Shown here in pieces: positions 31,424 to 57,224 of a stretch of 64,000 bases of DNA; the stretch's first letter is position 1, and the number at the start of each line of letters is the position of its first letter. The DNA lies in assembly GCF_000143415.4 (NCBI RefSeq), contig NW_003314347.1:457438-521437 (forward strand). The letters are read 5' to 3'. The notes under the pieces are model-generated. The model was not told the DNA's origin. It made no database searches and saw nothing but the letters and a program-made list of their open reading frames with translations. A program made the translations under genes and the position numbers. The DNA comes from Selaginella moellendorffii. Lineage: Eukaryota; Plantae; Lycopodiophyta.

Positions 31424-31633
31424 CTAGCAACCACGACAAAAAATCATAGAGAATGTAGAGACAAGGAGTGGAATGAGATTTGGGCGGATCAAACCTGCGG
31501 CCATTGGAAGCGTTCTCCAAGACCCTTCGCCGTGCTCGTTGACATACTGCGTGAGGAGCGTGTCTTCTTCACGAGTCCATGGACCCCTGTTGAGACCGAT
31601 TTTCTCGCAGCAAGGAGATCGACCCATCTGCAT
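31424..31633 (-). pseudogene. Orphan MYB exon 1 copy
   Basis: As 24698-24907. Confidence 0.85.
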
Positions 31634-32748: not shown

Positions 32749-35258
32749 CAAGCCTCAAATTTGCAGGGCAAACTTTCTTTTCCTTCTTGTGAATATTAGA
32801 ATTGACTTTCATTGTGCAAGATAAAAATTAATTTATACCTCCCAATATATAGATATTTATATGCAAAAAACTTTTTAATACAACTAATTCAATCACACAA
32901 AATCTTTGTTTCCTTTTTTTGATGACATGCATCATAAACATGCCCCTAATTGATCTTGTTGTAGTCATTATCACCATTTAAATAGATAAACATTGAATCA
33001 TCTAAAGTTTCAATCTTTAAAGAGCATTTTGAAGTAGTTTTTAACTGATTTTGATAAAAAAATCCACCTTTAGCACAAGTAGTGCTCACAAGTATCAAAG
33101 AGATAATTTTCCATAGTTCCATCAAATTAGAACATATATTTATCATGGAAATATCATCTTTGCATATTTCCCAAGCCACTAGCTCATTTTTTGTTAACAG
33201 ATTACTTTGCATAATAGTTACAAACTTTGTGAATTCTCCTTTACATTTTTCCCCATCAACAAAAGCACCATACTAGTTCAGTAAAATATTTAGCAATTTG
33301 TAAAAGTTGTTATCCAATTTTTCCTTATCATTTGAGTAATTTTTTGGGCTGAACAATTTTGTAGCATTGAATATGCCTATATCCTTTCCCATTCTGGCCA
33401 GCATATTAATGTGTAATTTCTGAATACATTCCTTGTTTAAATCTAAGCAAAAGCTCAAGCTCTCATCTTTTTTGCTCTCTAGAATAAGAGTATAATCTAA
33501 GGCATGTTTTTGTTATTCCCCTTTAGCATTTATAAATTTGATAAATTCATTTTTAGTAGCCTCCACAAAATTACTCAAGTGTTTCACACTAAAAGTCTCT
33601 TTCAGAAATTTTCTTTAGATACTTTTCAAAGTACCATCTAAATACCTAGCAATGTTAGCAATATTCATAATTTCAACTTTAAAAGATTTTGTTCAAACTA
33701 TTCAATTCCAGAAGTATATTAGGCAGCATATGAATAGATGATCAATCTCTTTAAGACTTCCTCATAAAATAACAAACATACATTGTGAATTTGAAGCATA
33801 CCTAATGTAAATATATTTATAGCATCTTCTAGAGGCTTAAAAGCTATGACTCTTTTTCTAAAAGTATGCAACCATTTATAAATTTGATTGCATAGCTTTT
33901 GAACAATCATAAATTTAAGAAATGCATGCACAACTTCAATAGCCACTAAACTTTATCTATGCGCTAAACAATGCATTCCAAACAAGTGTGGAATGTTATG
34001 TTTCAATCTTGTCACTAGACCAAATTATTTTCCAACCATAATAAAAGCTCCATCAGTTTCAATAACAACACATTTTCCCTTTTTAAAGTTCATTTCTTCC
34101 AAAACCTTTTTGATAGCTTCATATTTATTTACAACCTTTAGTTACCATCAATTTGAAAAAGCAAGTTTTATTCAGACTTTTTTCTTTTTCTTGCATATGG
34201 AAAGAGATGTATATGATAAGATGAGCTTCCAAACTTCTATCAGTATTGTTATCCATCATAATAGAAAAGTAAGGACTAGTTTAAATATTTTGGCAAACAT
34301 CTTTCCATCACACATCTTTTTTGCATTTTACAAACTCTTTCCCACTCATAGCATTCATATAAGTTTTATATTATATGGTGATTGGCATATAGGGCATTTC
34401 TATAAATCTATTAAATTCACACAAAGATTTATAGCTTTGTAAAGGTAATCCCTTATTCACAATGAAGTACATGAGGAAATCAATTTATTTTTGTGTTGAT
34501 CTTTTTGAGCAGTAATATATTTAAGGATAGATAACCCTTTCTTCTTCTTTACTTTCCAAATAACCATAGCTAGTTGATGTTGTTTGGAATTGTTATGCTA
34601 TTTTAAAATTGGTTTTTGAAAAGTCAAAGAACCATCCTTACCAAAAAAATTATCCTTTTTAGCATATACATATATTATTCTTTAATTGCCTTCAACATCT
34701 ATCACAATATACACCTAAGGAAAACTAAGTTTCCACTTAGTTCTAAATGTTTTATTCTTTTTCCTCTTTTTATTGGTTGTAGTATTGGTTTCTTCTTCTG
34801 TTGTTGAAAGATGTTCATCCTCTAATCTGATTTTAAATCTTTCACCAAAAAAGGAATCATAAAGCTCTTGCCTTGCAATATTTTGTTAATTTATATTTCT
34901 TTTCTCCCTCTCATAGGCAATAGCAAAAAATGCTTCAATCCTATGTTGTTGTTGTCACTATCGCTGCTTTCCCATTTGAATTCAATGAAGTTGACATGGA
35001 TTAGGTCTAGGGCAGGTTGTTAAACACTAGGATATTTTTACAATATTCTTAATAATAGTTGATAGAATATTATCTGTACTGCAATGTACGAATTTTCTTT
35101 GCCCAGCAAGTGGCAACACTAAAATATTTCTATACTTCATTAGTGCAAGGTGAAAATTGAACATTTCTTTCAAGTCGCAACATAAATTAGAAATCAGCCT
35201 TCAAATGCAAAGTAAACATGCCTTTGCAGGGCTTTGCAAGGTGCAAAATTGAGGCCTA
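32749..35258 (-). mobile_element. hAT DNA transposon (about 2.5 kb, decayed transposase)
   Basis: TIRs CAAGCCTCAAATTTGC / GCAAAATTGAGGCCTA; 8-bp TSD cactgcca / cattgtca; hAT dimerisation motif LWKIISLI.VST..A.GGF..QNQLKT...SLKIETLD. Confidence 0.88.
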
Positions 35259-35697
35259 CATTGTCATCCCTAAATGTGATTTGGGTGCCACAGTTCTAAA
35301 GAGACTGTCGCTATAGGAGAGCTTATGAGGATGTTGAGATATTGCTGTAAGTTCCTTCATGCACTTCACAGTGATCGTAAATGCTTCGTGATGGCATCTT
35401 AAACTTGTACCATGGCATCTGCATTGCCAGTTCAAAGATTAAATAGCCCACAACCAAGAACAAAGTGAAGAAAATGAGAAAAAATCTAAGAATGTTGCTG
35501 TCCCCTTAAGTTTCTCTGGCCATAAATTCGCTGCTACAATAGCTTATATCCTTTCTACGCTTTAAGTTTCAGTGCCCGTAGCGGATAGATGTCGTTTGGA
35601 CACTGTTGACCACAATTGACTATCGTTGACCAATGGACCGTTAACTTTGGGGTTCGATTCCTGCGCTGGGCGATATTGCCAGGGCTAGGGTTCTTCG

Positions 35698-36339
35698 ATG
35701 GGGCTCAAGCTGCGAGCAGTGCCGATCACGGAGGTGAATTTCCGGCCTTTTGGCCAGCTCCTGGGAAAGATCGGCGACGGATGCGAGTATGGATCGGGAG
35801 ACGCGCAGCTCAATCTCGCGAATGGGATTCCCAGGTAGTGCAGGCAAAATGTGGCCGAAATTTCCAGTGGCTCGATAGTGATTGAGTGAGTGATGGTTCT
35901 TTTGCGCAGATTCTACCTCATGGAGCTCAAGAAAACGGGGCTGCGATTCAAAAGGATAACGCATCACGCCAGGGTCACGCAGTGTCTGGGATCAGTGGGA
36001 GCTCATCCTTGGTACATGGCGGTCTCTCTTCCCAGCATTGTGGATCCTTCATCGCAACACGAGGGCGCTGTTCGATCCAACGCTGGTGGCCACTCCTATT
36101 TACCTCCCTCTCATGCAAGCGTCCAGGTTTTCAAGATAGATGGTCCTCGCTTCATCAAGCTAAACGAAGGAACTTGGCACGCTGGTCCTCTCTTTGGTGA
36201 TCGAGATTCGATGGTCTTCTACAGCTTGGAGCTCAGTGACACCAACGTAAGATCATTCGATCGAGCTATGTTTTCTCCCTTTTTATGTTCTTTTTATTTG
36301 CAGGTTGTGGATCACACTACCCACGTGTTTGAGGACTGA
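35698..36339 (+). CDS. Ureidoglycolate hydrolase-like, copy 2 (C-terminus shortened by a 7-nt deletion)
   Basis: MGLKLRAVPITEVNF...VVDHTTHVFED*; same two introns. Confidence 0.75.
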
Positions 36340-36539
36340 TCGAAGATTGAGGTACAGAGCCTTGGCATTTCATGTGATATTCGAACGTGATTTTTGTGCT
36401 AGGTGATGGCGAGCTTAAACACTTTTTTGCGTGTCTAGAAAAGCAAATGGTGGAAATGAAACAAGTTCTTTGCGAGCTAAGCATTTCATGTCCCTTGCCA
36501 TCAAGTTGTCGAGGAGCTCCTTTTGTGCCTCGGGACACT

Positions 36540-37278
36540 GACTAGTAGTTGAAGGATGTACAAAATGAGGCTGATGATCCTGACTCCCACAGACCATGGC
36601 GTCAACTCCCTGGTATAAATCTTTCTTAATTGAGGACTGTTGAGGACTTCTAGCACTTCCTCCTCTCCTGCTTCTCTCGACGTTTGTGCTCTGGGGAAGT
36701 GCCAGTCTTCGTGCTGCAAGCGAGCAATGTTTCCAACAACACAGCGAATTTCTATAAATTGCTGGATAGAGAAACACGAGCTGAATCAAAAGAACAATCG
36801 ACGAGCGACTGTAACAACTAACATACTCACCAGCCATAGGATAGCCTGGTTTCTCTCCTTAGAGTCGAGCCAGTAAAATTGTGCGTCTTTTAAACCAGGA
36901 TGGAGATAAGTCCGCTGGTGTTACCGATTCGCACGCATATCCTGTGGTCCACGGCTAGCCTGTTGGGGACTTCTAGCACTTCCTCCTCTCTTGCGGCTAA
37001 AAGAGCAGTGAGGGCCTCCAGGGATAGCGGAAAAAAGTGGAAAGCTGCTGCAGCTCTGGAGCTGAAGGCTTGGGAGTGGAAGGCTGCTGCTCGACCTCCG
37101 GATGTGGGGAAAAAGCCGACCACAACTCACTGGTATATGGGGTTCTAGTGCTTGAAGGTGGAGAAGTTGGAGAAGCGAGAGCAGAGCCGGAAGAAGGAAC
37201 TTGAATGGTTACCTCGGTACTCTTGGGGGCACCGGCAGACTGTGCCCCTTGAAACTTTCTGCTGTTCCACGAATCCAT
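36540..37278 (-). pseudogene. Heavily deleted ARM-gene remnant (unit 3)
   Basis: MDSWNS start joined by deletions to EALTALLAAREEEVLE and other fragments. Confidence 0.8.
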
Positions 37279-37646
37279 GTTTAGTGTTCAAGGAGTTCTG
37301 GGCATTCTGGGCATTCTGGTGACCGTGGTATTGACGACTTCAAAGCCGCTTGAATGTCTTTCTCATGTTGCTGGCATAAGCAAGAAAACTACTACTTTCG
37401 TTCTATGATAGCACGAGCCTTCCGAGCACTTCAAGCTACTCATCACGAGCGAATCTATGATAGCACGAGCCTTCTGAGCACTTCAAGCGGCTCGTCACGA
37501 GCGAATCAATAAAAAACGAGTGCTTTGTTTGACAGTGCTGCAAGATGCGACAAAGACACTGCAAACATCAAGCTTGAGCGGAGTATATAAGGGAATAGGG
37601 ACGTTCTAACTAGCTACGACGCAAACATGGCTTGTCTAGAGGGAAT

Positions 37647-37857
37647 CTAGCAACCACGACAAAAAATCTTAGAGAATGTAGAGACAAGGAGTGGAATGAG
37701 ATTTGGGCGGATCAAACCTGCGGCCATTGGAAGCGTTCTCCAAGACCCTTCGCCGTGCTCGTTGACATTACAGCGTGAGGAGCGTGTCTTCTTCACGAGT
37801 CCATGGGCCCCTGTTGAGACCGATTTTCTCGCAGCAAGGAGATCGACCCATCTGCAT
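37647..37857 (-). pseudogene. Orphan MYB exon 1 copy with a +1 frameshift
   Basis: gacattacagcgt versus gacatactgcgt in the other copies. Confidence 0.8.
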
Positions 37858-40750
37858 GGCACCACCAACAAGAAAATGAAGAAACTAGAAAATGCCTGTG
37901 GAAGCTTTGGGAAGAACACAGGATGAAGTTCGACTGGGACGAGAAGAATACGCTGGGTGTTATATACGAGATGTTTGTTTTAAATCAATGTTTTCCGCTC
38001 TGCTGGTCTCTTGCAAATGTTTCTAGCTATGAGATAGATGCTTCAGACACACAAGGGACCAGGACCAAGAGCAAAGCTTGAATCTTTTGACCCCTCGACG
38101 AAAGGAAGCTAGAGACTCGTATAGGGATCTAAAAAACCTGTTGCTTGTCCCGCCATGCAAACATCACTCCCTTTCTCGCTCGTTAAATTGCGGTAGGATC
38201 TCTCAAGAACATGACCACTATACTGTTGATGACTATCGCTACAGTAGGATGGACTTTGTGGTATAGCTTGGGCTGGTGTGCTCCACAGAAGCAGCACGAA
38301 CTACACAGGAGGAAGAAAGAAAAGGTAGAGAAGAAAGTGAAGAAGAATCAATGAAGAAGACGAAGAAAGGAGCTAATTACTGCTGTCCGTGAAGATGAGT
38401 GGAGAGAGCAACTTCAAAGAGCTAAAACTTTCACACGACAAACGGTCAGACGGGAAACTGGAGCGATCTGGCACTAGTGCTGCCATTCCAGATCGATCAA
38501 TATTGTTTGACAACAATGATCTGACACACACAAGACTGTTTTCTTCGTCTCGGTAGCGCCCTTTCTACTGTTGCACAACAAACTATTGCACAGCCGTGGA
38601 AGGGAATAATAGTATATAGAAACCTGTTGTATCTCGTACTCTTGCTCTATAAATTCTCCATAAACTTAAAGCTTCTTCTTCCAGGCCTAGAGAAAAGTCG
38701 GCTTCAAACACACAGCATGGCCATCTTTTAGTGTGTACTGTGCAGAACTCTCCCTTTCAACCAGGTCATATAGTTTGCCACTTACTAGGCTTAGGTGGTG
38801 GGAAAGAAAAAACTGGAGTATTCCTTCTCACGTAGTGATGTTTCTATCTTATACTTAAGAACCTTGTGTTGGCTCGAGGAGTAGTACTACGAAGTGGTGT
38901 AATGAACGCAAAGCTTGGACAGGGCAGATTGCTACTGAACACTATTGCCACTGCTACAATTGTCTCAAATTTGCAGGGCAAACTTTCTTTTCCTTCTTGT
39001 GAATATTACAATTGTCTTTCATTGTGCAAGATAAAAATTAATTTATACCTCCCAATATATAGATATTTATATATAAAAAAATTTTTAATACAATTAATTC
39101 AATCACACAAAATCTTTGTTTCCTTTTTTTGATGACATGCATCATAAACATGCCCCTAATTGATCTTGTTGTAGTCATTATCACCATTTAAATAGATAAA
39201 CATCAAATCATCTAAAGTTTCAATCTTTAAAGAGCATTTTGAAGTAGTTTTTAACTGATTTTGATAAAAAAATCCACCTTTAGCACAAGTAGTGCTCATA
39301 GGTATCAAAGAGATAATTTTCCATAGTTCCATCAAATTAGAATATATATCTATCATGGAAATATCATCTCTGCATATTTACTAAGCCACTAGCTCATTTT
39401 TTATTAACAGATTACTTTGCATAGTAGTTACAAACTTTGTGAATTCTCCTTTACATTTTTCCCCATCAACAAAAGCACCATACTAGTTCAGTAAAATATT
39501 TAGCCATTTGTAAAAGTTGTTATCCAATTTTTCTTTATCATTTGAGTAATTCTTTGGGCTAAACAATTTTGTAGCATTGAATATGCCTATATCCTTTCCC
39601 ATTCTGGCCAGCATATTAATGTATAATTTCTGAATACATTCTTTGTTTAAATCTAAGCAAGAGCTCAAGCTCTCATCTCTTTTGCTCTCTGGAATAGGAG
39701 TATAATCTAAGGCATGCTTTTGTTATTCCCCTTTAGCATTTATAAACTTGATAAATTCATCTTTAGTAGCCTCCACAAAATTACTCAAGTGTTTCACACT
39801 AAAAGTCTCTTTCAGAAATTTTCTTTAGATACTTTTCAAAGTACCATCTAAATACCTAGCAATGTTAGCAATATCCACAATTTCAACTTTAAAAGATTTT
39901 GTTCAAACTATTCAATTCCAGAAGTATATAAGGTAGCATATGAATAAATGATCAATCTCTTTAAGACTTCCCCATGAAATAACTAACATATATTATGAAT
40001 TTGAAACATACCTATGTAAATATATTTATAGCATCTTTTAGAGGCTTAAAAGCTATGACTCTTTTTTAAAAGTATGCAACCATTTATAAATTTGATTGCA
40101 TAGCTTTTGAAAAATCATAAGTTTAAGAAATGCATGCACAACTTGCCACTAAACTTTATCTATGCGCTAAACAATGCATTCCAAACAAGTGTGGAATGTT
40201 ATGTTTCAATATTGTCACTAGACCAAATTATTTTCCAACCATAATAAAAGCTCCATCAGTTCCAATAACAACACATTTTCCCTTTTTAAAGTTCATTTCT
40301 TCCAAAACCTTTTTGATGGCTTCATATTTATTTACAACCTTTAGTTACCATCAATTTGAAAAAGCAAGTTTTATTCAGACTTTTTTCTTTTTCTTACATA
40401 TGGAAAGAGATGTATATGATAAGATGAGCTTCCAAACTTCTATCAGTATTGTTATCCACCATAATAGAAAAGTAAGGACTAGCTTAAATATTTTGGCAAA
40501 CATCTTTCCATCACACATCTTTTTTGCATTTTACAAACTCTTTCCCACTCATAGCATTCATATAAGTCCTATACTCTATAGTGATTGGCATATAGGGCAT
40601 TTCTATAAACCTATTAAATTCACACAAAGATTTATAGCTTTGTAAAGGTAATCCCTTATTCACAATGAAGTACATGTGTTGCATTAAGGAAATCAATTTA
40701 TTTTTGTGTTGATTTTTTTGAGCAATAATACATTTAAGGATAGATAACCC

Positions 40751-41906
40751 TGTAAGGAACCAACTCGCTGAGGTGTCGTAGGCTAAAGGAACCCCGAAAG
40801 CATGACCAAAATGACAAAGAGTTCATCGGATGGGACCAAATCGAAGATCGAGTCCAAGACCAACTCGGAGACCGAGTTCGAGATAGAGTCCAGAATCGAG
40901 TCCGAGGCTGACTCGGGGACCGAGTTTGAGACCGAGTTCGAGACGGAGTCCGAGATCCGAAATTGGGTCCAAGACTGAGTCCGAGGTTGAGTCCGAGGTC
41001 GGGTTTGAGATCGGGTCCGAGATTGAGTCCGAGATCGAATCCGAGACCGAATCCGAAGTCGGATCCGAAATCGAGTCCGAGATCGAGCCAGAGACTAAGT
41101 CCAAATACTAATACGGGTCAAGGGGTGAAAGCCCAAAGCGTGCATCTCCCAGGGGGGGGGGGGGGGGGGGGCTCCAGGCTGTTCTTCGAAGGCTCTTCAA
41201 AGGAGATGATCAAGTTCCTAGCTTGTTCCAGCTTTTAAGCTGGAAGGGAGAACTAAGCAGAGTCAAAATTCTATTTAGAAATTAAGTCGAATGCACTTTA
41301 ATGTGTGGCTTTAAAATTTGTAGAGTCTATCTTGGCCTTTGAGGTTATGTACAAGACTATGGGCCTTCTAACTATGGTGCTGCGGTGCTCCCAGCTCATG
41401 TGGAGTGGTGCCCCACTTGAGTACCTTGTGGCTCATTGGTCCTTGCCCTTCCTAGGGACTTGGGCCTTCCCTTCAGGATAGAAGTGGGGGGGTAGAGGTA
41501 CCCATACCGCACCATTAGGCCACAGTGTTTCGCCCCGATGTCCCGAAGCAAGTGTTGCACCTAAGGCTTGGGATTTAGAGGGTCCCATGATCAAGTCTTG
41601 TTGTACCAAGGGATGTTAGAAACCTTGAGGCTTGGTGTGCTTGGCTGCTTGTGCTTGCGGGGAGTGTAGCCGAACCTTAAGTCCAGTCTAACCTGGGGAG
41701 GGGGATTGGGAGAGATTGGGAATCCGTGGATGGATGGCTAATGCTCCGTTGCTCGTGCAGTGAGTAGCTGAAACCAAGTAGGACCAAGTAGGAGTTGGTA
41801 CCATAGGCGAGAACCTTGGCGAGGGAACTTAGCAAAAGCTAAGGCAATGTCAGACGGATAGACGAGGTAAGCTGGCAAATGGGAAAGGAAAAAATTGTGG
41901 CTTACA
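40751..41906 (+). repeat. 5' LTR (1156 bp)
   Basis: TG...CA ends; direct repeat of 47117-48262. Confidence 0.95.
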
Positions 41907-41909
41907 ATT

Positions 41910-41921
41910 TGGTATCGGAGC
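41910..41921 (+). promoter_or_regulatory. Primer-binding site, tRNA-iMet type
   Basis: TGGTATCGGAGC 3 nt after the LTR end (consensus TGGTATCAGAGC). Confidence 0.9.
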
Positions 41922-41965
41922 CTTTTCCTCAGTTCTAGCGAAGGATAGAGGCGGATTGCTGGGAG

Positions 41966-44900
41966 ATGGCAAGGGCAGGGCGTAAGCGAACCCAGGTGGA
42001 GATGGAACCTCCGCCAGAGCTGGAGCCTCCGGTCGAACAAGAGGCTATGGATGAGGAATCTTTGCATGAGGAGGACTCCAGTGAGGAAACTTCTAAACAG
42101 GAGTCCAGTGGCGAGGTTCGGTCGTCCAAGGCTCGATTGGACGTTCTAGAAGGACAATTGGCGCAGACCAATGCCCTGCTGGAGACTCTCGTACGCAAGC
42201 TAAAGCGTGACAAGAAGTGGAAGAAAAAGCGAAAGATTGTGGATGCTGGCAGCGCAAAAGGTGCGGACCCTTCGGCAGGGACTAAGGCAAAACCAGACAA
42301 GGTCGAACACAGGCAATTCCCAAGTACAAACCAAAACCCCCACTGGTCTTCAAGGGAGTGAACGACTATAAGGTTGTGGAGGATTGGTTTTACGATATGG
42401 AGGACTACTTCTGAGCGTTGCGGTTACCGAGCTCGGAGAAGGTCCCATGTGCAAAACCATACTTGGTAGATAATGCCAAGTCTTGGTGGAGAACAACGGA
42501 GGCCAACGAAGGACCGGTGGTCACTTGGGACATGATGAAGGCGAGGATCCGCGCAATATACGTTCCTCCGAATGCCACTCTGCATCTGAGAGATGAGCTG
42601 AGTAGGCTGAAGCAGACTGGAACCATCCAGGAATATGTGAATGGGTTCATGGCAAAGAGGATACTTGTCACGGACATGGGGGATATGGATGCGTTCCATG
42701 CCTTTATATCAAGTTTGCAAACCTGGGCTCGCGGTGAGGTGATGTGCTGGAACCCGACCAACTACAAGGAAGCGTTGGATGCGGCCATCAAGGTGCATTT
42801 CAACGATAACTTGCGAAAGGGGAACATGACGGGGTCGGGATCCACGTTTAGCAAAGGGGCCAAACCAAGGGGAACGTATAGCAAAGGGAAATTCAAGAAG
42901 AGTTTCTCTAAGAATGAGTCCTCGGGGTTCCAGAAAGGCAAATCCGGTGGCCAGCGAGCGAGTACGTGGGGGAGTCAAGTGAAAAGAGACAAACCCATGG
43001 ATAAGAAGGTCAAGTCGTATAGCAGCATGGGAAACAACGTATGCTACAACTGCGGTGAAGCGGGATACTTTTCGAGGGAATGTCCCTACGCGAAGAAGGC
43101 CAGAGCCAATATGGTTATCAAGTCGGGTGAAGTCCAAACTGAGGTATGTGATCCAGTCCCTAACTCAATGTTACTCATTACACGAGCAACTTTGGTAGAG
43201 AGTTGTTCGCGACATCTACTAGCCCTCCGAGGGAAGCTCGGAGGTAGCTTTGTTAAGATCTTTATTGACACGGGTGCTTCGGATAATTTTGTGGCTGTAG
43301 ACATAGTCCGGCAAGCCAGACTAATGGTGCAGCAACTAGGCGAACCAAGGACTATAGAGTTTGTTCAAGGTAGCTAAAGCACCGATGAGGTACTTCGACA
43401 AGGGAGAGTCGAAGTAGGGACATGGAAAGTAAACATGGATTTCACCGTGTTGGATATGGCGGGATTTGACGTGATCTTCAGAATGGATTGGTTCAATCGG
43501 TTCGTGGTAGCCCTGCATAGACAAGGTAGGAACCTTGTGGTACTAGCGAATGCCCAAGGAAGAAGATCTAGGGTGGAGGCCTAAGATCTAAAGGTAGGGC
43601 AAAGCAAGGCCAAAGATTCCTGCTTAAACTTGGTGTCCACGAGAGGACAACTCACTAAAGGAATTAAGGTAGCCTTTTTGTGCTTACTCTCGGTGAAGAG
43701 TGACAAAAAGACAGAAACGGAAGAAGTACCTTTAGTGATCTAGCGGGTGTTGGACCAATTCCAGGATACCATGCCAGAGGAGCTACCGGCGGGGTTGCCC
43801 CCCGCACGACCGATAGAACATAAAATTGAGCTGGTCGAGGGTGCTGAGGCGGTGGTTCGTCCCCCCTATCGTTTGAACGAAAAAGAACTCAAGGAGCTCA
43901 AGTGCCAACTAGAGGAGTTGGTGGACAAAGGGTATGTTAGGTTGAGCAAGTCGCCGTATGGGGCGCCGGTGTTATTTGTGAAAAAGAAAGATGGTTCTAT
44001 GCGCATGTGCATACACTATCGGTTGCTCAACAAGTATACAAAGAAGAACAAGTACCCTTTGCTAAGAATTGAGGACTTGTTCGATAAGTTGGGAAAGGCA
44101 AAATACTTCTCGAGGATTGACCTAAGGTCAGGATACTGCCAGATCAAGGTAGCTGAGGAAGATGTCGAGAAGATAACCTGTCGAACGAGGTATGGGAGCT
44201 TTGAGTTTCTGGTGATGCCCTTTGGGCTATGCAATGCGCCGGCAACGTTTTCGGCGCTGATGAACCACATCTTTGTACCCTATCTGGATCACTTCGTGGT
44301 CGTCTATATCGACGACATCCTGATCTATAGCGAGACGCTAAAGGAGCATGCCGAACACTTGGCGAAGGTGTTTGAGAAACTAAGGGAACACAAACTGTAT
44401 GCTAAAGAGAGCAAATGTGACTTTGCTCAACAAGAGGTAAAGTTTCTCGGGCATGTGGTGGGCCAGGACAGGCTCAAGGTGGACCCGGAGAAGGTCCAAG
44501 CGATCCAGGAATGGGAGTGACCATCGAGTGTATATGAGTTGAGGGCATTCTTGGGGCTATGCAACTACTATCTAAAGTTTATCAGACACTATTCGAGAGT
44601 AGCCCTGCCCTTAACGGACCAAACAGGAAAAGGGAAGATGGTATGGACAGCGGAATGTGAGGCGGCATTCGTCCACCTCAAAGGGAAATCGAGGAAGACC
44701 CCCGTGTTGGCATTACCAGACTTTGGTAAGGACTTTGAGGTAAAAACGGATGCTTCAGACTTTGCGTTGGGCGCGGTTTTGAAGCAAGACAACTATCCAG
44801 TAGCGTTCTTCTCGAAGAAATTGGACAAGGCTCAACGGAAGTGGCTTGCCCATGAGAAGGAATTGTTTGCGGTAGTCAAGGAGCTCAAGGAGTGGCGACA

Positions 44901-46712
44901 CTACCTTGGGAGACACTTCAAGGTTTACACGGACAATGTGGCAACGAAACACTTCTTGTCACAGCCCGATCTGAGAGGGAAACAAGGTCGGTGGGCCAAT
45001 GCCTTGGCCGAGTTTGATTGCGAGATTCTGTATAAGCCTGGGAAGAGCAACATCGTGGCGGATGCGCTAAGTCGAAAAGCGAGCTTGAGGTTGGCAATAT
45101 CCAGCGCAACAACAACCTTCTGGGACGATGTGCAGACAACATATGAGAACGATGGTCTAGCACAAGAAGTGTTGCTGAGGAACCTAGAGGCAAGGGAAGC
45201 TCACCAGAGAGGTGAGCTGCCAACGGAAGAGAAAACGGGCTATGCGGAACGCAACGGACTCATCTATTACAAGCAAACGAGGGTGTATGTTCCAAAAGGG
45301 GGACTAAGGAAGGTAGCCTTAGAAGAGTGTCATGACGGACTTCTTGCGGGACACGGCGGAGTGCCCAAGACGATGGGCTTACTCAAGAGGAAGTACCATT
45401 AGCCAGATATGGCTAAGGACGTCCAAGACTAAAAGACAAGTCTAACATGTTAGCAGGTCAAAGCCGTGACTAAGGCTAGTGGGGGCTTGTTGCAAAGCAT
45501 CCCAATTCCAGATCGTCCATGGAAATGTCTTACGATGGACTTCATCACGGGACTACCCCCAAGCGAGGGGTTTGATGCGATATTCGTGGTGGTGGATCGA
45601 TTTTTGAAGATGGCACATTTCATACCCACCACAACGGAAGTGGATGTGGAAGGTGTGGCGAAGCTGTTCTTTGAGCAAGTGGTTCGAGTGTGGGGAAGGC
45701 CAAAAGAGATTATCTCAGATCGAGATAAGATCTTCACTAGTAGGTTTTGGAGGACCCTCCTGGAACAGTATCGCACCAAGTTGAAATTCAGCACAGCCTA
45801 TCACCCACAGACAGGTATGGGGTATTAAGTCAAGTTGATGGCACTAACACTTCTTGATAGACGGACAAACAGAAAGGGTGAATAGGCAGCTGGAGGATTA
45901 TTTGCGATGCTATGTCTCAGGAGACCAGACCGATTGGGTAAGTCATTTGGGACTTGCAGAAATGTGTTATAATAACTCACCACATTCGAGCATCGGGGTG
46001 AGTCCATGGGAAGTCATCAATGGGCGAGCCATTGAAGGTCCTATGGAACTCGGCGTGGCTGAGTATCATGGAGAGCTACCCGCAGTGGAGGCATTCACGG
46101 CGGAAAGACTCAACATTTGGAATCTAGTGAGGGATTCCTTGGAACGGGCGCAACAAAGGCAAACCAAGTACGCGAACCAGAAGCGCCGGGACGTAGAGTT
46201 CCAAGCTGGGGAGAAGGTGTGGCTGAACACCAAGAACCTCAGGCTACCAAGTGGGATCAGCCAGAAGTTGACCCAAAGGTAAAAGTGCATGTATTCCTGT
46301 AAATGAATTGATCTGGAGTTCCTTAAGCAGGTTCGCGGGGCCTTACGAGATTGAGGCTCGAATCGGTAAAGTGCCTTACCGTCTCCGACTTCCTCGAGAG
46401 ATGTGGAAGATGCATCCCGTGTTCCACGTGAACTTACTCAAACCGTATTTTGAAGATCCGCTTCGCAAGGACCAAGTAAGACCTTTACCTGAGGTTATCC
46501 AAGGGGAAGAGGAATACGAAGTCGAAGCCATCCTCAATGCGCGCAAGAGCAAGCAACAAGGACGCGAGGTGAGAGAGTTCCATGTGAAGTGGAAAGGATT
46601 TCCACACTACGAAGCAACATGGGAACCGGAGGAGAACCTAGCGAACGCGCGAGATCTAGTGGAGGAATTTCTGCAAGGCAGAACTCTATGTACTTATGCA
46701 AAGTTCAATTAA
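41966..46712 (+). pseudogene. gag-pol: gag-pol polyprotein with in-frame stops, one gag frameshift and two introns in integrase (45815-45860, 46279-46330)
   Basis: CYNCGEAGYFSREC knuckle, protease IDTGAS, RT YIDD, RNase H TDASDFALG, INT HDG..GH, TMDF, SDRD, type-I-like chromodomain YEVEAIL..VKWKGF...TWEPEENL. Segments 42418-45814 share one frame; most stops look like CGA/CAA/CAG/TGG transitions. Confidence 0.93.
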
Positions 46713-47104
46713 AAGTATCAATTTGTGAAGTTGAGCAATGGCATATGTTGGGACCCGAAGGTGCGCCGAAGGTAAGCTAATTAGCATGGGTTAGCTAGGT
46801 CGACCAGGCGTAGGGAGCTACGCCTGACTCCCTGCGGGGATGTCGAATCCGTAGACGTATTCTACGGAGGTTGGGTTCGAGTCCTAACCCCCTAGTAAAG
46901 CAAGGCTGGGTTCAAGTCCCAACCCCATACTAGGGCGTGGTGAGGTGAGGAGTATAGGGACACATATATTCCGTTGTCATGGGCTCTTGGCCGAGGAGGC
47001 TAACTTAGGCACACCGCTAAGTGGGGGGATGCCCCCGGAGACATGGTTAACAAGTCATAGGATCAAAAGAGAGACGTTCGATGTGGGCATCGAACTTTTT
47101 CTAT

Positions 47105-47115
47105 GGGTGGTGGAG
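47105..47115 (+). promoter_or_regulatory. Polypurine tract
   Basis: GGGTGGTGGAG immediately before the 3' LTR. Confidence 0.75.
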
Positions 47116-47116
47116 T

Positions 47117-48262
47117 TGTAAGGAACCAACTCGCCGAGGTGTCGTAGGCTAAAGGAACCCCGAAAGCATGACCAAAATGACAAAGAGTTCATCGGATGGG
47201 ACCAAGTCGAAGATCGAGTCCAAGACCGACTCGGAGACCGAGTTCGAGATAGAGTCCAGAATCGAGTCCGAGGCCGACTCGGGGACCGAGTTCGAGACCG
47301 AGTTCGAGACCGAGTTCGAGACGGAGTCTGAGATCCAAAATCGGGTCCAAGACCGAGTCCGAGGTTGAGTCTGAGGTCGGGTCGATCTCGGACTCGATTT
47401 CGGATCCGACTTCGGATTCGGTCTCGGATTCGATCTCGGACTCGATCTCGGACCCGATCTCGGAGCCAAAGACTAAGTCCAAATACTAATACGGGTCAAG
47501 GGGTGAAAGCCCAAAGCGTGCGTCTCCCAGGGGGGGGGGCTGCAGGGGGTTCCAAAAGTATAGTAGGGATAGTGAGGTCCAGGAACCAGTTTTGAAGGGA
47601 CTCTCCAGTGGGGCTCCCAAACCGACTTGAGGTTGAGATTGGGATCGAGGGGCCTTGGGTGGGAGTGAGCATGGACTTGGCTGGTGCCGGAGGGGCTATC
47701 CAAGGAAGTGCTCAAGAGCAGCTCCCACTCCCGAAAGGGAAACCGATTGCGGTGCTCCCAGCTCATGTGGAATGGTGCCCCACTTGAGTACCATGCGGCT
47801 CATTGGTCCTCGCCCTTCCTAGGGGCTTGGGCCTTCCTTCGGGATGGAAGTGGGGGGGTAGAGGTACCCATACCGGGCCGCTAGGCCACAGTGTTTCGCC
47901 CCAGCGTCCCGAAGCAAGTGTTGCACTCAAGACTTGGGATTTAGAGGGTCCCATGATCAAGTCTTGTGGTACCAAAGGATGTTAGGAACCTAGAAGTTTG
48001 GTGTGCTTGGCTACTTGTGCTTGCGGGGAGTGTAGCCGAACCTTAAGTCCAGTTTAACCTGGGGAGGGGGATTGGGAGAGATTGGGAATCCGTGGATGGA
48101 TGGCTAACGCTCCATTGCTCGTGCAATGAGTAGCTGAAACCAAGTAGGAGTTGGTACTATAGGCGAGAACCTTGGTGAGGGAACTTAGCAAAAGCTAAGG
48201 CAGTGTCAGACGGATAGACGAGGTAAGCCGGCAAATGGGAAAGGAAAAATTTGTGGCTTACA
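47117..48262 (+). repeat. 3' LTR (1146 bp)
   Basis: TG...CA ends followed by the AACCC TSD. Confidence 0.95.
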
Positions 48263-49434
48263 AACCCTTTCTTCTTCTTTATTTCTCAAATAACCATAGC
48301 TAGTTGATATTGTTTGGAATTGTTATGCTATTTTAAAATTGGTTTTTGAAAAGTCAAAGAACCATCCTTACGAAAAAAATTATCCTTTTTAGCATATACA
48401 TATATCGTACATTTTATTCTTTAATTGCCTCCAACATCTATCACAAGATACACCCAAGGAAAACTAAGTTTCCACTTAGTTCTGAATGCTTTATTATTTT
48501 TCCTCTTTTTATTGGTTGTAGTATTAGTTTCTTCTTCTGTTGTTGAAAGATGTTCATCCTCTGATCTAATTTTAAATCCTTCACCAAAAAAGGAATCATA
48601 AAGCTCTTGCCTTGCAATATTTTGTTAACCTATATTTCTTTTCTCCTTCTCATAGGCAATAGCAAAAAATGCTTCAATCCTATGTTGTTGCTGTCACTAT
48701 CACTGCTTTCCCATTTGAATTCAATGAAGTTGACATGGATTAGGTTTAGGGCAGGTTGTTATACACTAGGATATTTTTACAATATTCTTAATAATATTTG
48801 ATAGAATATTATCTGTACTGCAATGTACGAATTTTCTTTGCCCAGCAAGTGGCAACACTAAAATATTTCTATACTTCATTAGTGCAAGGTGAAAATTGAA
48901 CATTTCTTTCAAGTAGCAACGTAAATTAGAAATCAGTCTTCAAATGCAAAGTAAACATGCCTTTGCAAGGCGCAAGGTGCAAAACTGAGGCCTACATTGT
49001 CATCCCTAAATGTGATTTGGGTGCCACAGTTCTAAAGAGACTGTCGCTATAGGAGAGCTTATGAGGATGTTGAGATATTGCTGTAAGTTCCTTCATGCAC
49101 TTCACAGTGATCGTAAATGCCTTGTGATGGCATCCTAAACTTGTACTGTGGCATCTGCATTGCCAGTTCAAAGATTAAATAGCCCACAACCAAGAACAAA
49201 GTGAAGAAAATGAGAAAAAATCTAAGAATGTTGCTGTCCCTTAAGTTTCTCTTGCCATAAATTCGCTGCTACAATAGCTTATATCCTTTCTACGCTTTAA
49301 GTTTCAGTGCCCGTAGCGGATTTGGACACTGTTGACCACAATTGACTATCGTTCACCAATGGACCGTTAACTTTGCTGACTATGCTGGGTTCGATTCCTG
49401 CGCTGGGCGATATTGCCAGGGCTAGGGTTCTTCG

Positions 49435-50104
49435 ATGGGGCTCAAGCTGCGAGCAGTGCCGATCACGGAGGTGAATTTCCGGCCTTTTGGCCAGCTCCTG
49501 GGAAAGATCGGCGACGGATGCGAGTATGGATCGGGAGACGCGCAGCTCAATCTCGCGAATGGGATTCCCAGGTAGTGCAGGCAAAATGTGGCCGAAATTT
49601 CCAGCGGCTCAGTAGTGATTGAGTGAGTGATGGTTCCTTTGCGCAGATTCTACCTCATGGAGCTCAAGAAAACGGGGCTGCGATTCAAAAGGATAACGCA
49701 TCACGCCAGGGTGACGCAGTGTCTGGGATCAGTGGGAGCTCATCCTTGGTACATGGCGGTCTCTCTTCCCAGCATTGTGGATCCTTCATCGCAACACGAG
49801 GGCGCTGTTCGATCCAACGCTGGTGGCCACTCCTATTTACCTCCCTCTCATGCAAGCGTCCAGGTTTTCAAGATAGATGGTCCTCGCTTCATCAAGCTAA
49901 ACGAAGGAACTTGGCACGCTGGTCCTCTCTTTGGCGATCGAGATTCGATGGTCTTCTACAACTTGGAGCTCAGTGACACCAACGTAAGATCATTCGATCG
50001 AGCTTGTATGACTTATGTTTTCTCCCTTTTTATGTTCTTTTTATTTGCAGGTTGTGGATCACACTACCCACGTGTTTGAGGACGACGTACTGATCGAAGA
50101 TTGA
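49435..50104 (+). CDS. Ureidoglycolate hydrolase-like, copy 3 (appears intact)
   Basis: MGLKLRAVPITEVNF...HVFEDDVLIED*. Confidence 0.85.
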
Positions 50105-51057
50105 GGTACAGAGCCTTGGCATTTCATGTGATATTCGAACGTGATTTTTGTGCTAGGTGATGGCGAGCTTAAACACTTTTTTGCGTGTCTAGAAAAGCAA
50201 ATGGTGGAAATGAAACAAGTTCTTTGCGAGCTAAGAATTTCATGTCCCTTGCCATCAAGTTGTCGAGGAGCTCCTTTTGTGCCTCGGGACATTGACTAGT
50301 AGTTACAAAAGGAGGCTGATGATCCTGGTCGGAAGAAAATTTACGAACGGGATGACTCCCACAGACCATGGCGTCAACTCCCTGGTATAAATCTTTCTTA
50401 ATTGAACTGTAACACTGTTAGAATTCTGTGCAGGGTGCTGATTATGGTCGAAAGCCGCCTGCTTTCTGTCGAACACGAGCGAGCGGATGTTGAGAGTATT
50501 CATGTAATTTGCCTCCTGCCAGTCCAGCTCGCTACTTCCGCCAAGAACTCGGGTTCCCTCAGTCAACAGCAAGATGGAAATGTTCCAGAAGTCTTTCTTC
50601 TTGATGTCGGTCACAAACTCGAGCGGTGGATGATATCCTTTGAAAGGTTTTGCTGCTCCTGAAACTTCTTGTATTTCACCTCTTCGTGGTTCTGATTCTA
50701 ATAATGTAACTTTCGTGACAGCGGAAAAGTACGAACTCTATGCTTGGAAAGTTTCAAAACAGCGTGGAGTGGTGACCACAATTTCAGAAAGGAGATCTTC
50801 TATGAAGTGAAGGAAGCTTTATTTTTGCATGTTGATTAATGTTTTCTTTCCTATTTAGAGTTCTGTTAGTGAATTACAATTGCGTAAGCGAAGTTGCTGC
50901 GAGTTCAGATCTCCTATGAAGTAAGCTTCTTCTTCTTTGGATGTTGATTGATTTTTTTCTTTCTTTTTTAGAGTTTACGTGAGCAAGTTGCTGAAACTGA
51001 ATTTGTATTTTTACAATCGAGGTATGATTTTTGGTTTTTTTTTTGGAAAAGGTGAAG

Positions 51058-53070
51058 CTACAGCCTATGTAAGTTCAATAGGGCGCTGTTGACGAGCTCC
51101 TCGAGGCTTCTGGAATGCTTGGTAAGTCCCACAAAACCCGGAAACGTTAAGAAGTTTTCTTCGTCTGAGGCAGTCGCTGACATTGCTTCCAGGGACGCCT
51201 CCACTTCACCGTCTTCTCTAAAACGTCGCAAGAACCTGGCGTCCTTTGCCACCAAGCTGTTCAGAAGCTCTACGCTATATCGCCGGATACGATTCAAGCT
51301 CCTAGAAGGTGCTGTCTGGGATAGAAGCTCTGTGATTTTTTCGCAAAGCTGTGATTGTTGCGATAGCACGCCTTGTTCAAAGTTACGTGTGTCGAGCCAG
51401 GGGATTATGGCTGCTGCCAAACCGATGGCTGCCTGCTGTTCCTTGTCCGTGGATTCCAGCACCATCTGGATGATGCGAGATATGGCTGCTCCAAGCTCCA
51501 ACTTTTCTTCGTCGTTAAGGTCACCGCACAAGCTTCGCAAAATTGTGGCTGCATGGACTCCAACTGGCTTGGTGAGCGTGTTGATCAAGTTCTTGAGGGT
51601 CTTGCTAACGCCACCTTTTCTGTAGCTTTTGTGCATGAGGAGCCTCGAGCAATTGTTTGGACACTGGAGAACGAGCACAATTATGGCTTCCCCGGCTTTC
51701 ATGGCAATGGTCAAGTGGTCGCTGTTCGGTGCGGTTTCTCTCGCAAATATGGCCATCAAGCTTTGGATAACTCCTCCAGTCGCGCCAATGCAATCTCTAA
51801 GCTCGTCCTCGGTTGCTAGCAGCTTGATCACGTCTACTGCCAGGTTTTGTAGCTCCAAATCTTCGAGATTGCATATCCTTTGAAAACTTCTTACTGCTGG
51901 CACTACCGACACTATCTTCTTTCGCAGTGACCGTCCAGAATCTCCTCCCACGCGAGCCAATGTCCTCAAAAGCTCGAGTGATCGACGGAATACTTCTTTC
52001 GACGTTCGTACTTCGTCTTGGATAAATTCAACCAGGATGGAGATAAGTCCGCTGGTGTGACCGATTCGCACGCATGTCCTGTAATCCACGGCTAGCCTGT
52101 TGAGGACTTCTAGCACTTCCTCCTGTCTTTCGGGTAAAAGAGCAGTGAGGGCCTCCAGGGATCCAGGGATAGCGGAAATCCTGAAGCAGTTATGGCTGTG
52201 ACGAACCAGGTGCTTGATTACTATGGTTGCAGCTTTCCTGATTTCGGCCTCACTAGGATCCTTCCAGGTGATCATCTCTAAGAGTCTCTCCACAACTCCG
52301 GGCGTGGTACCAATCCTCCGTTGCGTTTCTTCCATTGAATCTCCTTTTGAGACAAGAGCTGACAGTATTTTGACGCTACCGAGCTGCTCTTCCCTTATGC
52401 TTGACTGCAGCTTCTCGACGGTGAAATCGATAAGGTCCATTCCCAGGCCATCAAACACGCTTCCGTTCAGCGATCGTGAGTACAATGTGTACCAGTACTG
52501 CTTCATGGTTTCAATGTCGTCTTGATCAAGCTCACACGTTCGAGTGACTACTTCCAGCAACCTCTGGTAACGAAGCTTGAATTCCCAATATGCTCTCTCC
52601 AGGAGGAATAGCGACGTTTCTGCCAGCATCATCGCGTAAAACACAGTAAGTGCTTGCTCAGTGTTGTTTCCTTGGGCATTGAAGCCGTGCTCGGCAAGTC
52701 GATATACTGAGAAACATGCGGTGACTGTTGCAGAAGCAAGCTGGAGGAAGTACATGAAAAGGCTGATGATCCTGGTGGGGAGGAACTTTACATACGCGCT
52801 TCCCACGCACCAAATTCTTCTGGCACCGAATCCCTGGTATAAATCTTTCTTTACTGAAGGCTTGGGAGTGGAAGGCTGCTGCTCGACTTCCGGATGTGGG
52901 GAAAAAACCGACCACAACTCACTGGTATATGGGGTTCTAGTGCTTGAAGGTGGAGAAGTTGGAGAAGCGAGAGCAGAGCCGGAAGAAGGAACTTGAATGG
53001 TTACCTCGGTACTCTTGGGGGCACCGGCAGACTGTGCCCCTTGAAACTTTCTGCTGTTCCACGAATCCAT
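51058..53070 (-). CDS. ARM-repeat protein, copy 3, with an in-frame deletion of the first TM block (670 aa)
   Basis: PKPS joined to VKKDLY; about 140 aa missing relative to copy 2; frame preserved. Confidence 0.7.
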   Translation of the reverse strand: MDSWNSRKFQGAQSAGAPKSTEVTIQVPSSGSALASPTSPPSSTRTPYTSELWSVFSPHPEVEQQPSTPKPSVKKDLYQGFGARRIWCVGSAYVKFLPTRIISLFMYFLQLASATVTACFSVYRLAEHGFNAQGNNTEQALTVFYAMMLAETSLFLLERAYWEFKLRYQRLLEVVTRTCELDQDDIETMKQYWYTLYSRSLNGSVFDGLGMDLIDFTVEKLQSSIREEQLGSVKILSALVSKGDSMEETQRRIGTTPGVVERLLEMITWKDPSEAEIRKAATIVIKHLVRHSHNCFRISAIPGSLEALTALLPERQEEVLEVLNRLAVDYRTCVRIGHTSGLISILVEFIQDEVRTSKEVFRRSLELLRTLARVGGDSGRSLRKKIVSVVPAVRSFQRICNLEDLELQNLAVDVIKLLATEDELRDCIGATGGVIQSLMAIFARETAPNSDHLTIAMKAGEAIIVLVLQCPNNCSRLLMHKSYRKGGVSKTLKNLINTLTKPVGVHAATILRSLCGDLNDEEKLELGAAISRIIQMVLESTDKEQQAAIGLAAAIIPWLDTRNFEQGVLSQQSQLCEKITELLSQTAPSRSLNRIRRYSVELLNSLVAKDARFLRRFREDGEVEASLEAMSATASDEENFLTFPGFVGLTKHSRSLEELVNSALLNLHRL

Positions 53071-53406
53071 GTTTAGTGTTCAAGGAGTTCTGGGCATTCT
53101 GGGCATTCTGGTGACCGTGGTATTGACGACTTCAAAGCCGCAAGTAAGCTACTACTTTCGTTCTATGATAGCACGAGCCTTCCGAGCAGTTCAAGCTACT
53201 CATCACGAGCAAATCTATGATAGCACGAGCCTTCTGACCACTTCAAGCGACTCGTCACGAGCGAATCAATAAAAAACGAGTGCTTTGTTTGACAGTGCTG
53301 CAAGTTGCGACAAAGACACTGCAAACATCAAGCTTGAGCGGAGTATATAAGGGAATAGGGACGTTGTAACTAGCTACGACGCAAACATGGCTTGTCTAGA
53401 GGGAAT

Positions 53407-53616
53407 CTAGCAACCACGACAAAAAATCTTAGAGAATGTAGAGACAAGGAGTGGAATGAGATTTGGGCGGATCAAACCTGCGGCCATTGGAAGCGTTCTC
53501 CAAGACCCTTCGCCGTGCTCGTTGACATACTGCGTGAGGAGCGTGTCTTCTTCACGAGTCCATGGACCCCTGTTGAGACCGATTTTCTCGCAGCAAGGAG
53601 ATCGACCCATCTGCAT
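53407..53616 (-). pseudogene. Orphan MYB exon 1 copy
   Basis: As 24698-24907. Confidence 0.85.
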
Positions 53617-54714
53617 GGCACCACCAACAAGGATAAAGAAGAACAGAAACTATAAAATGCCTGTGGAAACTTTGGGAAGAACACAGGATGAAGTTCGACT
53701 GGGACGAGAAGAATACGCTGGGTGTTATATACGAGATGTTTGTTTTAAATCAATGTTTTCCGCTCTGCTGGTCTCTTGCAAATGTTCCTAGCTATGAGAT
53801 AGATGCTTCAGACACACAAGGGACCAGGACCAAGAAAAAATATTCATGAGAATGAATCTTTTGACCCCTCAACGAAAGGAAGCTAGGGACTCGTATAGAA
53901 ATCTAAAAAACCTGTGCCCTGCTTGTCCCGCCGTGCAAACATCACTCCCTTTCTCGCTCGTTAAATCGCGGTAGGATCTAGAACATGACCACTATACTGT
54001 TGATGACTATCGCTACAGTAGGATGGACTTTGTGGTATAGCTTGGGCTGGTGCTCCACAGAAGCAGCACGAACTACACAGGAGGAAGAAAGAAAAAGTAG
54101 AGAAGAAAACGAAGAAGAATCAATGAAGAAGACGAAGAAAGGAGCTAATTACTGCTGTCCGTGAAGATGAGTGGAGAGAGCAACTTCAAAGAGCTAAAAC
54201 TTTCACACGACAAACGGTCAGACGGGAAACTGGAGCGATCTGGCACTAGTGCTGCCATTCCAGATCGATCAATGTTGTTTGACAACAATGATCTGACACA
54301 CACAAGACTGTTTTCTTTGTCTCGGTAGCGCCCTTTCTACTGTTGCACAACAAACTATTGCACAGCTGTGGAAGGGAATAATAGTATATAGAAACCTGTT
54401 GTATCTCGTACTCTTGCTCTATAAATTCTCCATAAACTTAAAGCTTCTTCTTCCAAAGTCGGCTTCAAACACACAGCATGGCCATCTTTTAGTGTGTACT
54501 GTGCAGAACTCTCCCTTTCAACCAGGTCATATAATTTGCCACTTACTAGGCTTAGGTGGTGGGAAAGAAAAAACTGGAGTATTCCTTCTCACGTAGTGAT
54601 GTTTCTATCTTATACTTAAGAACCTTGTGTTGGCTCGAGGAGTAGTACTATGAAGTGGTGTAATGAACGCAAAGCTTGGACAGGGATTGCTACTGAACAC
54701 TATTGCCACTGCCA

Positions 54715-57224
54715 CAAGCCTCAAATTTGCAGGGCAAACTTTCTTTTCCTTCTTGTGAATATTAGAATTGACTTTTATTGTGCAAGATAAAAATTAATTT
54801 ATACCTCCCAATATATAGATATTTATATATAAATTTTTTTTTAATACAACTAATTTAATCACACAAAATCTTTGTTTCCTTTTTTTGATGACATGCATCA
54901 TAAACATGCCCCTAATTGATCTTGTTGTAGTCATTATCACCATTTAAATAGATAAACATCAAATCATCTAAAGTTTCAATATTTAAAGAGCATCTTGAAG
55001 TAGTTTTTAACTGATTTTGATAAGAAAATCCACCTTTAGCATAAGTAGTGCTCACATGTATCAAAGAGATAATTTTCCATAGTTCCATCAAACTAAAACA
55101 TATATCTATTATGGAAATATCATCTTTGCATATTTGCCAAGCTACTAGCTCATTTTTTGTTAACAAATTACTTTGCATAATAGTTACAAACTTTGTGAAT
55201 TCTCCTTTACATTTTTCCCCATCAACAAAAGCACCATACTAGTTCAGTAAAATATTTAGCCATTTGTAAGAGTTGTTATCCAATTTTTCCTTATCATTTG
55301 AGTAATTTTTTGGGCTGAACAATTTTGTAGCATTGAATATGCCTATATCCTTTCCCATTCTAGCCAACATATCAATGTGTAATTTCTGAATACATTCCTT
55401 GTTTAAATTTAAGCAAGAGCTCAAGCTCTCATCTCTTTTGCTCTCTGTAATAGGAGTATAATCTAAGACATGTTTTTGTTATTCCCCTTTAACATTTATA
55501 AACTTGATAAATTCATCTTTAGTAGCCTCCACAAAATTACGCAAGTGTTTCACACTAAGAGTCTCTTTCAGAAATTTTCTTTAGATACTTTTCAAAGTAC
55601 CATCTAAATACCTAGCAATGTTAGCAATATCCACAATTTCAACTTTAAAAGATTTTGTTCAAACTATTCAATTCCAGAAGTATATTAGGCAGCATATGAA
55701 TAGATGATTAATCTCTTTAAGACTTCCCTATGAAATAACCAACGTACATTGTGAATTTGAAGCATACCTAATGTAAATATATTTATAGCATCTTCTAGAG
55801 GCTTAAAAGCTATGACTCTTGTTCTAAAAGTATGCAACCATTTATAAATTTGATTGCATAGCTTTTGAACAATTATAAATTTAAGAAATGCATGCACAAC
55901 TTCAATAGCCACTAAACTTTATCTATGCACTAAGCAATGCATTCCAAACAAATGTGGAATGTTATGTTTCAATCTTGTCACTAGACCAAATTGTTCTTCA
56001 ACTATAATAAAAACTCTATCAGTTCCAATAGCAACACATTTTCCCTTTTTAAAGTTCATTTCTTCCAAAACCTTTTTGATGGCTTCATATTTATTTACAT
56101 CCTTTAATTACCATCAATTTCAAAAAGCAAGTTTTATTCAGACTTTTTTCTTTTTTTTGCATATGGAAAGAGATGTATATGATAAGATGAGCTTCCAAAC
56201 TTCTATCAATATTGTTATTCACTATAATAGAAAATTAAGGACTAATTTGAATATCTTGGCAAACATCTTTCCATCACACATCTTTTATGCATTTTAAAAA
56301 CTTTTTCTCACTTATAGCATTTACACAAGTCCTATACTTTATGGTGATTGGCATATAGGGCATTTCTATAAACCTATTAAATTCACACAAAGATTTATAG
56401 CTTTGTAAAAGTAATCCCTTATTCACAATGAAGTACATGAGGAAATCAATTTATTTTTGTGTTGATCTTTTTAAGGAGTAATATATTTAAGGATAGATAA
56501 CCCTTTCTTCTTCTTTACTTCCCAAATAACCATAGCTAGTTGATGTTGTTTGGAATTGTTATGCTATTTTAAAATTGGTTTTTAAAAAGTCAAAGAACCA
56601 TCCTTACCAAAAAAGTTATCCTTTTTAGCATATACATATATTATTCTTTAATTGCCTTCAACATTTATCACAAGATACACCCAAGGAAAACTAAGTTTCC
56701 ACTTAATTTTGAATGCTTAATTCTTTTTCCTCTTTTTATTGGTTGTAATATTAGTTTCTTATTTTGTTGTTGAAAGATGTTCATCCTCTAATCTAATTTT
56801 AAATCTTTCACCAAAAAGGGAATCATAAAGCTCTTGCCTTGCAATATTTTGTTAATCTATATTTCTTTTCTCCCTCTCATAGGCAATAGCAAAAAATGCT
56901 TCAATCCTATGTTGTTGCTGTCACTATCGCTGCTTTCCCATTTGAATTCAATGAAGTTGACATGTATTAGGTCTAGGGCAGGTTGTTAAACACTAGGATA
57001 TTTTTATAATATTTTTAATAATATTTGATAGAATATTATCTGTACTGCAATGTACGAATTTTCTTTGCCCAGCAAGTGGCAACACTAAAATATTTCTATA
57101 CTTCATTAGTGCAAGGTGAAAATTGAACATTTTTTTCAAGTAGCAACGTAAATTAGAAATCAGTCTTCAAATGCAAAGTAAACATGCCTTTGCAGGGCTT
57201 TGCAAGGTGCAAAATTGAGGCCTA
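54715..57224 (-). mobile_element. hAT DNA transposon copy
   Basis: Same TIRs; TSD cactgcca / cattgtca. Confidence 0.88.

Follow-up and report, generated by a model that had tools for sequence, protein, structure and literature searches.

The classic proof of the movement of LTR elements via RNA is the loss of introns during reverse transcription. In the stretch of Selaginella moellendorffii DNA analyzed here (64,000 nt, hereafter the window), the integrase gene of an LTR retrotransposon is interrupted by two short inserts, designated A and B, which the first-pass annotation had read as spliceosomal introns. The locus raises the question of whether A and B are introns and, if they are, how they were kept by an element that is copied from RNA.

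Structure of the Element

The features of the element are listed below in the coordinates of the window.

40746-40750, plus strand: left target-site duplication AACCC
40751-48262, plus strand: complete element, 7,512 nt; Ty3/gypsy chromovirus, full-length, decayed, likely of the SM1-Galahad family
40751-41906, plus strand: 5' LTR, 1,156 nt, TG..CA ends, with a 12-nt tandem array and a 20-nt poly-G tract
41910-41922, plus strand: PBS-like sequence, 13 nt
41966-45814, plus strand: predicted exon 1, with gag, zinc knuckle, protease, RT, RNase H, integrase HHCC and the first two catalytic Asp
45815-45860, plus strand: insert A, predicted U2 intron, 46 nt, phase 1, CAG/GTATGG...TAG/AC
45861-46278, plus strand: predicted exon 2, with the catalytic Glu and the remaining integrase core, open frame
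46279-46330, plus strand: insert B, predicted U2 intron, 52 nt, phase 2, AAG/GTAAAA...CAG/GT
46331-46712, plus strand: predicted exon 3, with the GPY/F-SH3 domain and the chromodomain (~46515-46673), open frame
47103-47115, plus strand: imperfect PPT, a purine-rich tract 5' of the 3' LTR
47117-48262, plus strand: 3' LTR, 1,146 nt, TG..CA ends
48263-48267, plus strand: right target-site duplication AACCC

According to the Pfam analysis, the domains follow in the order PF03732, PF00078, PF17917, PF17921, PF00665, PF24626 and PF00385, the last two being found in exon 3 with 54 and 62 bits, respectively. With the protease, whose motif was found by eye only, the order gag-(PR)-RT-RH-INT-chromodomain is that of a Ty3/gypsy chromovirus, and the structural hallmarks are present as well, namely, two LTRs with TG..CA ends, a 5-bp target-site duplication, a PBS and an imperfect PPT. 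We take the PBS-like sequence to be of the initiator tRNA-Met type, a label borrowed from the published description of SM1-Galahad.

The copy in the window is dead: exon 1 contains eight in-frame stops and one frame break, which lies in gag. The LTRs differ by 0.04-0.07 outside the repeat array. Since the TG..CA ends are intact and flanked by a 5-bp target-site duplication, the copy was integrated by an integrase. The exact flanks of the insertion have no second occurrence in the window, and no empty insertion site was detected there by exact flank match. The 12-nt array is partly inverted between the LTRs (41007-41089 versus 47379-47461; 83 nt, 98% complementary). The element is located in a host block, present in at least three near-identical copies (30000-40450 and 48400-55700; 95-100% over 300-nt pieces), that includes MYB-like and other gene pieces.

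Boundaries and Signals of the Two Inserts

The boundaries were assessed with a homolog-only profile that scored all frame-restoring deletions around each site. For insert A, the GT..AG cut shared first place among 1,102 open candidates with two others; owing to the 2-nt AG repeat on either side of the insert, all three cuts are the same in sequence. For insert B, which is flanked by a 4-nt AGGT repeat, the GT..AG cut scored 123.0 compared with 123.3 for the best of 1,557 candidates, i.e., within 0.3 bit. When three registers are allowed at A and 13 at B, the chance that both homology-picked cuts fall on GT..AG is ~0.001. The coordinates, lengths and phases given by the first-pass annotation were exact. 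Both inserts have the GT..AG ends at homology-defined boundaries by which U2 introns are recognized.

Insert A splits the Asp codon of HPQT-D-GQTE, and insert B is positioned just 5' of the GPY/F motif. As the annotation had proposed, skipping both restores YHPQT-D-GQTERVN and KLTQR-FAGPY and gives a gap-free integrase-chromodomain frame, in which the next stop is at 46710. The in-frame stops that it had reported in the inserts were found at 45826 (A) and 46280 (B), and its branch word CTAAC in A is at 45844, 14 nt from the insert end; insert B of this copy has just a weak branch-like TTGAT at 46308. The GC content is 0.39 in A and 0.37 in B versus ~0.50 in the flanking coding DNA, a mild signal, as values this low occur in 189 of 2,727 (A) and 53 of 2,721 (B) same-sized pol windows. 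No likeness was found between A and B, or between either of them and the rest of the window, beyond 10-11-nt chance matches.

As a host control, the seven introns of one gene in the window (425-1870), which has an open 345-aa frame and presumably resembles hydroxyproline O-arabinosyltransferases, were used; they measure 51-65 nt. In this sample (n=7), B, with its 52 nt, falls within the range, and A is 5 nt under it and shorter than all seven introns.

Probable Assignment to SM1-Galahad

The SM1-Galahad family of S. moellendorffii was described as a 7.5-kb multi-copy consensus with LTRs of 1,076 and 1,146 bp, poly-G tracts and a 13-nt tRNA-Met PBS; it has hundreds of copies, ~95% alike, among which an intact one was not found (PMC3350952). 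According to the same source, the family has a single Gag-Pol ORF of 3,885 bp lacking the chromodomain and, downstream, two short ORFs (316 and 309 bp), of which the second carries a group I chromodomain (PMC3350952). The present element, when unspliced, has an ORF of 3,860 nt when counted from the first ATG, or 3,887 nt between stops, and two further ORFs of 318 and 309 nt; its hypothetical first ORF would measure 4,268 nt without A and 4,646 nt without A and B. The lengths of the element, the 3' LTR and the ORFs, the poly-G tract and the tRNA-Met PBS agree, the 5' LTR measuring 1,156 nt here and 1,076 bp in the consensus. The element therefore likely belongs to SM1-Galahad, a match made by dimensions and not by sequence. 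Breaks at A and B agree with the published ORF lengths, and both inserts were therefore most likely present in the consensus. The pieces treated as separate ORFs in PMC3350952 are here explained as exons; the main text of that paper contains "intron" and "splic" 0 times.

The sister family SM2-Galahad, of the Galadriel clade, is abundant and intact and has one continuous 4,731-bp ORF through the chromodomain (PMC3350952). It shares the domain order and chromodomain I with the present element and differs from it in that the ORF lacks such inserts.

Distribution of the Inserts within the Family and among Relatives

The first-pass annotation had suggested checking whether the inserts recur in other copies of the family. 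In contigs of DNA run X1, the internal region is fully covered with a flat summed depth of 0.70-1.14 million per bin, which is not equivalent to copy number, and the assembly may derive from X1. Inside B, the depth is 693k and 681k compared with 519k-910k at nearby exon sites; at 45834 inside A, which is the site of a polymorphic indel, it is only 334k. Together with the ORFs of the SM1-Galahad consensus, these depths indicate that inserts A and B are common to the family and not private to this copy. As for intronless copies, which the annotation had also proposed to look for, a 46- or 52-nt skip was absent from the best-supported 15 of 108 joints in X1, the weakest of which has a depth of 171. 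Some joints were left out of the count, so rare intronless copies may exist.

Four common small indels are listed in X1. Two of them are at 45834 in A (13 and 17 contigs), giving length variants of 46 and 47 nt in the family, and the others affect the terminal stop codon and the 3' non-coding part; none lies within the 4,646 sense-coding nt. In addition, the sequence of 17 contigs departs from this copy immediately inside B, with differences at about 5 of 30 letters, and in them a canonical CTRAY-type branch word replaces the TTGAT of this copy (both by eye). Fixed ends and open exons combined with free changes of length and sequence inside the inserts form the pattern shown by introns. Copies in X1 (41909-47115) differ by C>T and G>A at 408 of 635 places, as expected for methylated, silenced copies.

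Among homologous proteins (357 fetched, 291 aligned), 256 of the 263 spanning A are gap-free across it, as are 154 of the 189 spanning B (7 and 35 gapped, respectively). Distant metagenome loci cross A in 44 of 54 cases and B in 22 of 54 (one alignment), and the remaining loci are broken or end too early. Since distant relatives and SM2-Galahad are uninterrupted, the inserts are derived. The protein searches found no family protein reading through or across the junctions. The best identity for the exon 2 query was 47% among 86 full matches; the other queries gave 59% among 150 matches, and one short match. The closest RT protein showed 65% identity among the 120 matches listed, and none of the 357 fetched proteins exceeded 65% (RT) or 49% (integrase). 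No relatives (0) were present among the 12 pattern matches in viral contigs.

RNA Reads

Family reads numbered 11 in RNA run X21, three in X22 and none in X23, of 9.2 million records each; X23 is accordingly no test. The family is almost silent in these runs. The joined reads that the annotation would have looked for at the two junctions were not listed among the 14 reads of X21 and X22, where a joint is listed only from three reads upward. Three reads cover 46285, inside B, and therefore were either unspliced there or derived from DNA carry-over. By depth arithmetic, one X21 read contributes 95-96 letters to the bin that includes A, while the depth listed at 45834 is 0. This read fits splicing at A and equally, if the depth table disregards read ends, an unspliced read starting at 45815-45816; it is a hint only. 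Splicing of A and B is predicted from sequence.

Explanations for the Interrupted Integrase Gene

In principle, the breaks could be private decay or an assembly artefact in one dead copy, and the eight in-frame stops and the LTR divergence of 0.04-0.07 agree with that. The depth over the inserts across the family, in assembly-independent contigs, and the matching consensus ORF lengths (PMC3350952) have largely refuted this explanation, to which hardly any probability can be assigned. It is also very improbable that ribosomes hop or shift across the inserts with no splicing involved. Frameshifting is common in Gypsy elements (PMC3735527), but both inserts contain in-frame stops, the 46- and 47-nt variants of A would require different shifts, and the boundaries fit the splice consensus and not slippery sites.

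A more serious rival, though still an unlikely one, is a non-autonomous family in which the inserts killed the integrase of a master copy, no productive splicing takes place, and copies were spread by integrase from a partner family, for example SM2-Galahad. The failure to find an intact SM1-Galahad next to an intact and abundant sister family (PMC3350952) is in line with it, as are the lack of a listed RNA junction and the three reads inside B; moreover, flanking AG and AGGT repeats can yield GT..AG ends without selection, and BARE2 parasitises BARE1 likewise (PMC3735527). Against this, two independent inserts both have GT..AG ends and host-intron size (~0.001), and nothing would require the second one to be spliceable once the gene was dead; moreover, the frames of exons 2 and 3 are open and free of common indels, while A varies in length. 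Quite improbable, in turn, is a rarer intronless subfamily that supplies most of the integrase, with spliced RNA also being copied and the intron-bearing copies forming an abundant, quieter majority. Spliced RNA would keep every known cis signal for reverse transcription, and the joints seen are the best 15 of 108 in contigs, which drop rare variants. No intronless joint reached a depth of 171 in those 15, however, compared with 330k-690k for the inserts, no protein among the 357 fetched was closer than 65% (RT) or 49% (integrase), and both breaks are present in a many-copy consensus (PMC3350952).

Proposed Mechanism

A and B are probably two weakly spliced spliceosomal introns, with unspliced RNA being packaged and copied and a spliced minority of transcripts making the full integrase. 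As judged from the sequence, the unspliced RNA encodes Gag-PR-RT-RH and an integrase without the catalytic Glu. Its frame ends at TGMGY-stop, three codons upstream of the Glu; that it stops before the Glu of DDE had been stated by the first-pass annotation. Splicing of A only would end at KLTQR-stop and give the catalytic core without GPY/F or the chromodomain, and splicing of both A and B would give the full enzyme with GPY/F and the chromodomain. The copy was normally integrated and the inserts are family-wide; the template was therefore an intron-bearing RNA, which upholds a further proposal of the annotation.

Under the splicing reading, A and B would be removed weakly, in a minority of transcripts, and translation of this minority would yield full-length integrase, while the unspliced RNA would serve as the packaged and reverse-transcribed genome. 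Spliced RNA would have to be kept out of particles, and the anatomy of the element, which speaks against the reading in this respect, gives no reason why it should escape copying. Because the leader, PBS and PPT are all retained after splicing, exclusion would most likely operate through routing into separate RNA pools, as in BARE1. The likely benefit would be that integrase is made in low amounts compared with Gag and RT. The introns were likely gained by insertion at proto-splice sites, to which the AG and AGGT repeats point, after the split from SM2-Galahad; the absence of both inserts in that sister family makes the gain datable.

A tentative extension, which may well prove wrong, is a two-step switch. 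No splicing would leave a genomic RNA without active integrase, splicing of A would produce a catalytic integrase without the chromatin reader, and splicing of A and B would produce a chromodomain-targeted enzyme. If this were true, host splicing would set both the integrase dose and the landing sites of new copies, and a 50-nt intron would suffice to mark an RNA for packaging.

Comparison with Known Systems

The annotation had contrasted the arrangement with splicing cases located outside the integrase core, but it overstated the paradox. In Ogre (Ty3/gypsy, Tat), translation of RT-RH-integrase depends on the removal of an intron from part of the transcripts, and the intron-bearing copies propagate (PMC6317226, PMC12786077); the paradox of splicing for pol yet copying unspliced RNA is therefore not new (PMC6317226). 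The present element is not an Ogre, as it has no spacer between protease and RT and contains a chromodomain. A 2025 review describes plant LTR elements as generally without introns and names Ogre and EVADE as exceptions (PMC12786077). In BARE1, the RNA destined for packaging forms an unspliced pool of its own, and amplification of spliced DNA copies was unsuccessful (PMC3735527). BARE1, EVADE and Drosophila copia (Ty1/copia) resemble the prediction made here in having alternative splicing inside a single ORF (PMC3735527 and PMC5580714). In these elements, however, splicing breaks the frame to give Gag and unspliced RNA gives the full Pol, whereas in the present element the relation is reversed, the unspliced RNA lacking an active integrase.

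Penelope-like elements keep introns after retrotransposition, and an ORF intron was inferred in the Selaginella family PLE-X1 (PMC8557442), so that Selaginella retroelements may gain or keep introns more often than those of other genera. Those elements have no LTRs or DDE integrase and transpose by another mechanism. Ginger transposase genes contain introns. The GingerRoot DNA transposon, with an integrase-related DDE gene, was found in Selaginella (PMC6839031). As DNA transposons, Ginger and GingerRoot have terminal inverted repeats and lack RT, and introns therefore pose no paradox there; the present element has direct LTRs and RT-RH.

In the full-text literature searched, by title and abstract start, no report of introns inside the integrase of an LTR element was found, the scope of the search leaving subscription journals, Repbase and bioRxiv supplements outside. 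In the portions searched, PMC8226300, PMC13148404, PMC9804982, PMC12130899 and PMC2864245 contain no integrase intron, and "intron" has 0 matches in PMC3783388. What appears to be new is the location in the integrase core and C-terminal domain together with the host-like size, and the intron reading appears to be absent from the papers searched.

Hundreds of copies keeping two essential integrase introns would constitute a minimal natural system for the choice between translating and packaging an RNA, in which spliced and unspliced RNA are only 98 nt apart and have all known cis signals in common. Intact families in short-intron genomes may go unnoticed where pipelines classify elements of this type as broken or non-autonomous, which is what the description of 2012 implied.

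Other donor-like words occur in the element. Right after the zinc knuckle, a strong donor-like GAG/GTATGT is followed by candidate acceptors 43 and 55 nt downstream (43144-43198); with either acceptor, a cut here would shift the frame, which would soon end (by eye), and the product would be an RNA for Gag alone, like those of BARE1 and EVADE. The RNA reads include none over this site. The remaining donor-like words in pol are without a matching branch word and acceptor. A further donor-like word, GTAAGC, is followed after 42 nt by a YAG (46772-46813) in the element's 3' non-coding part.
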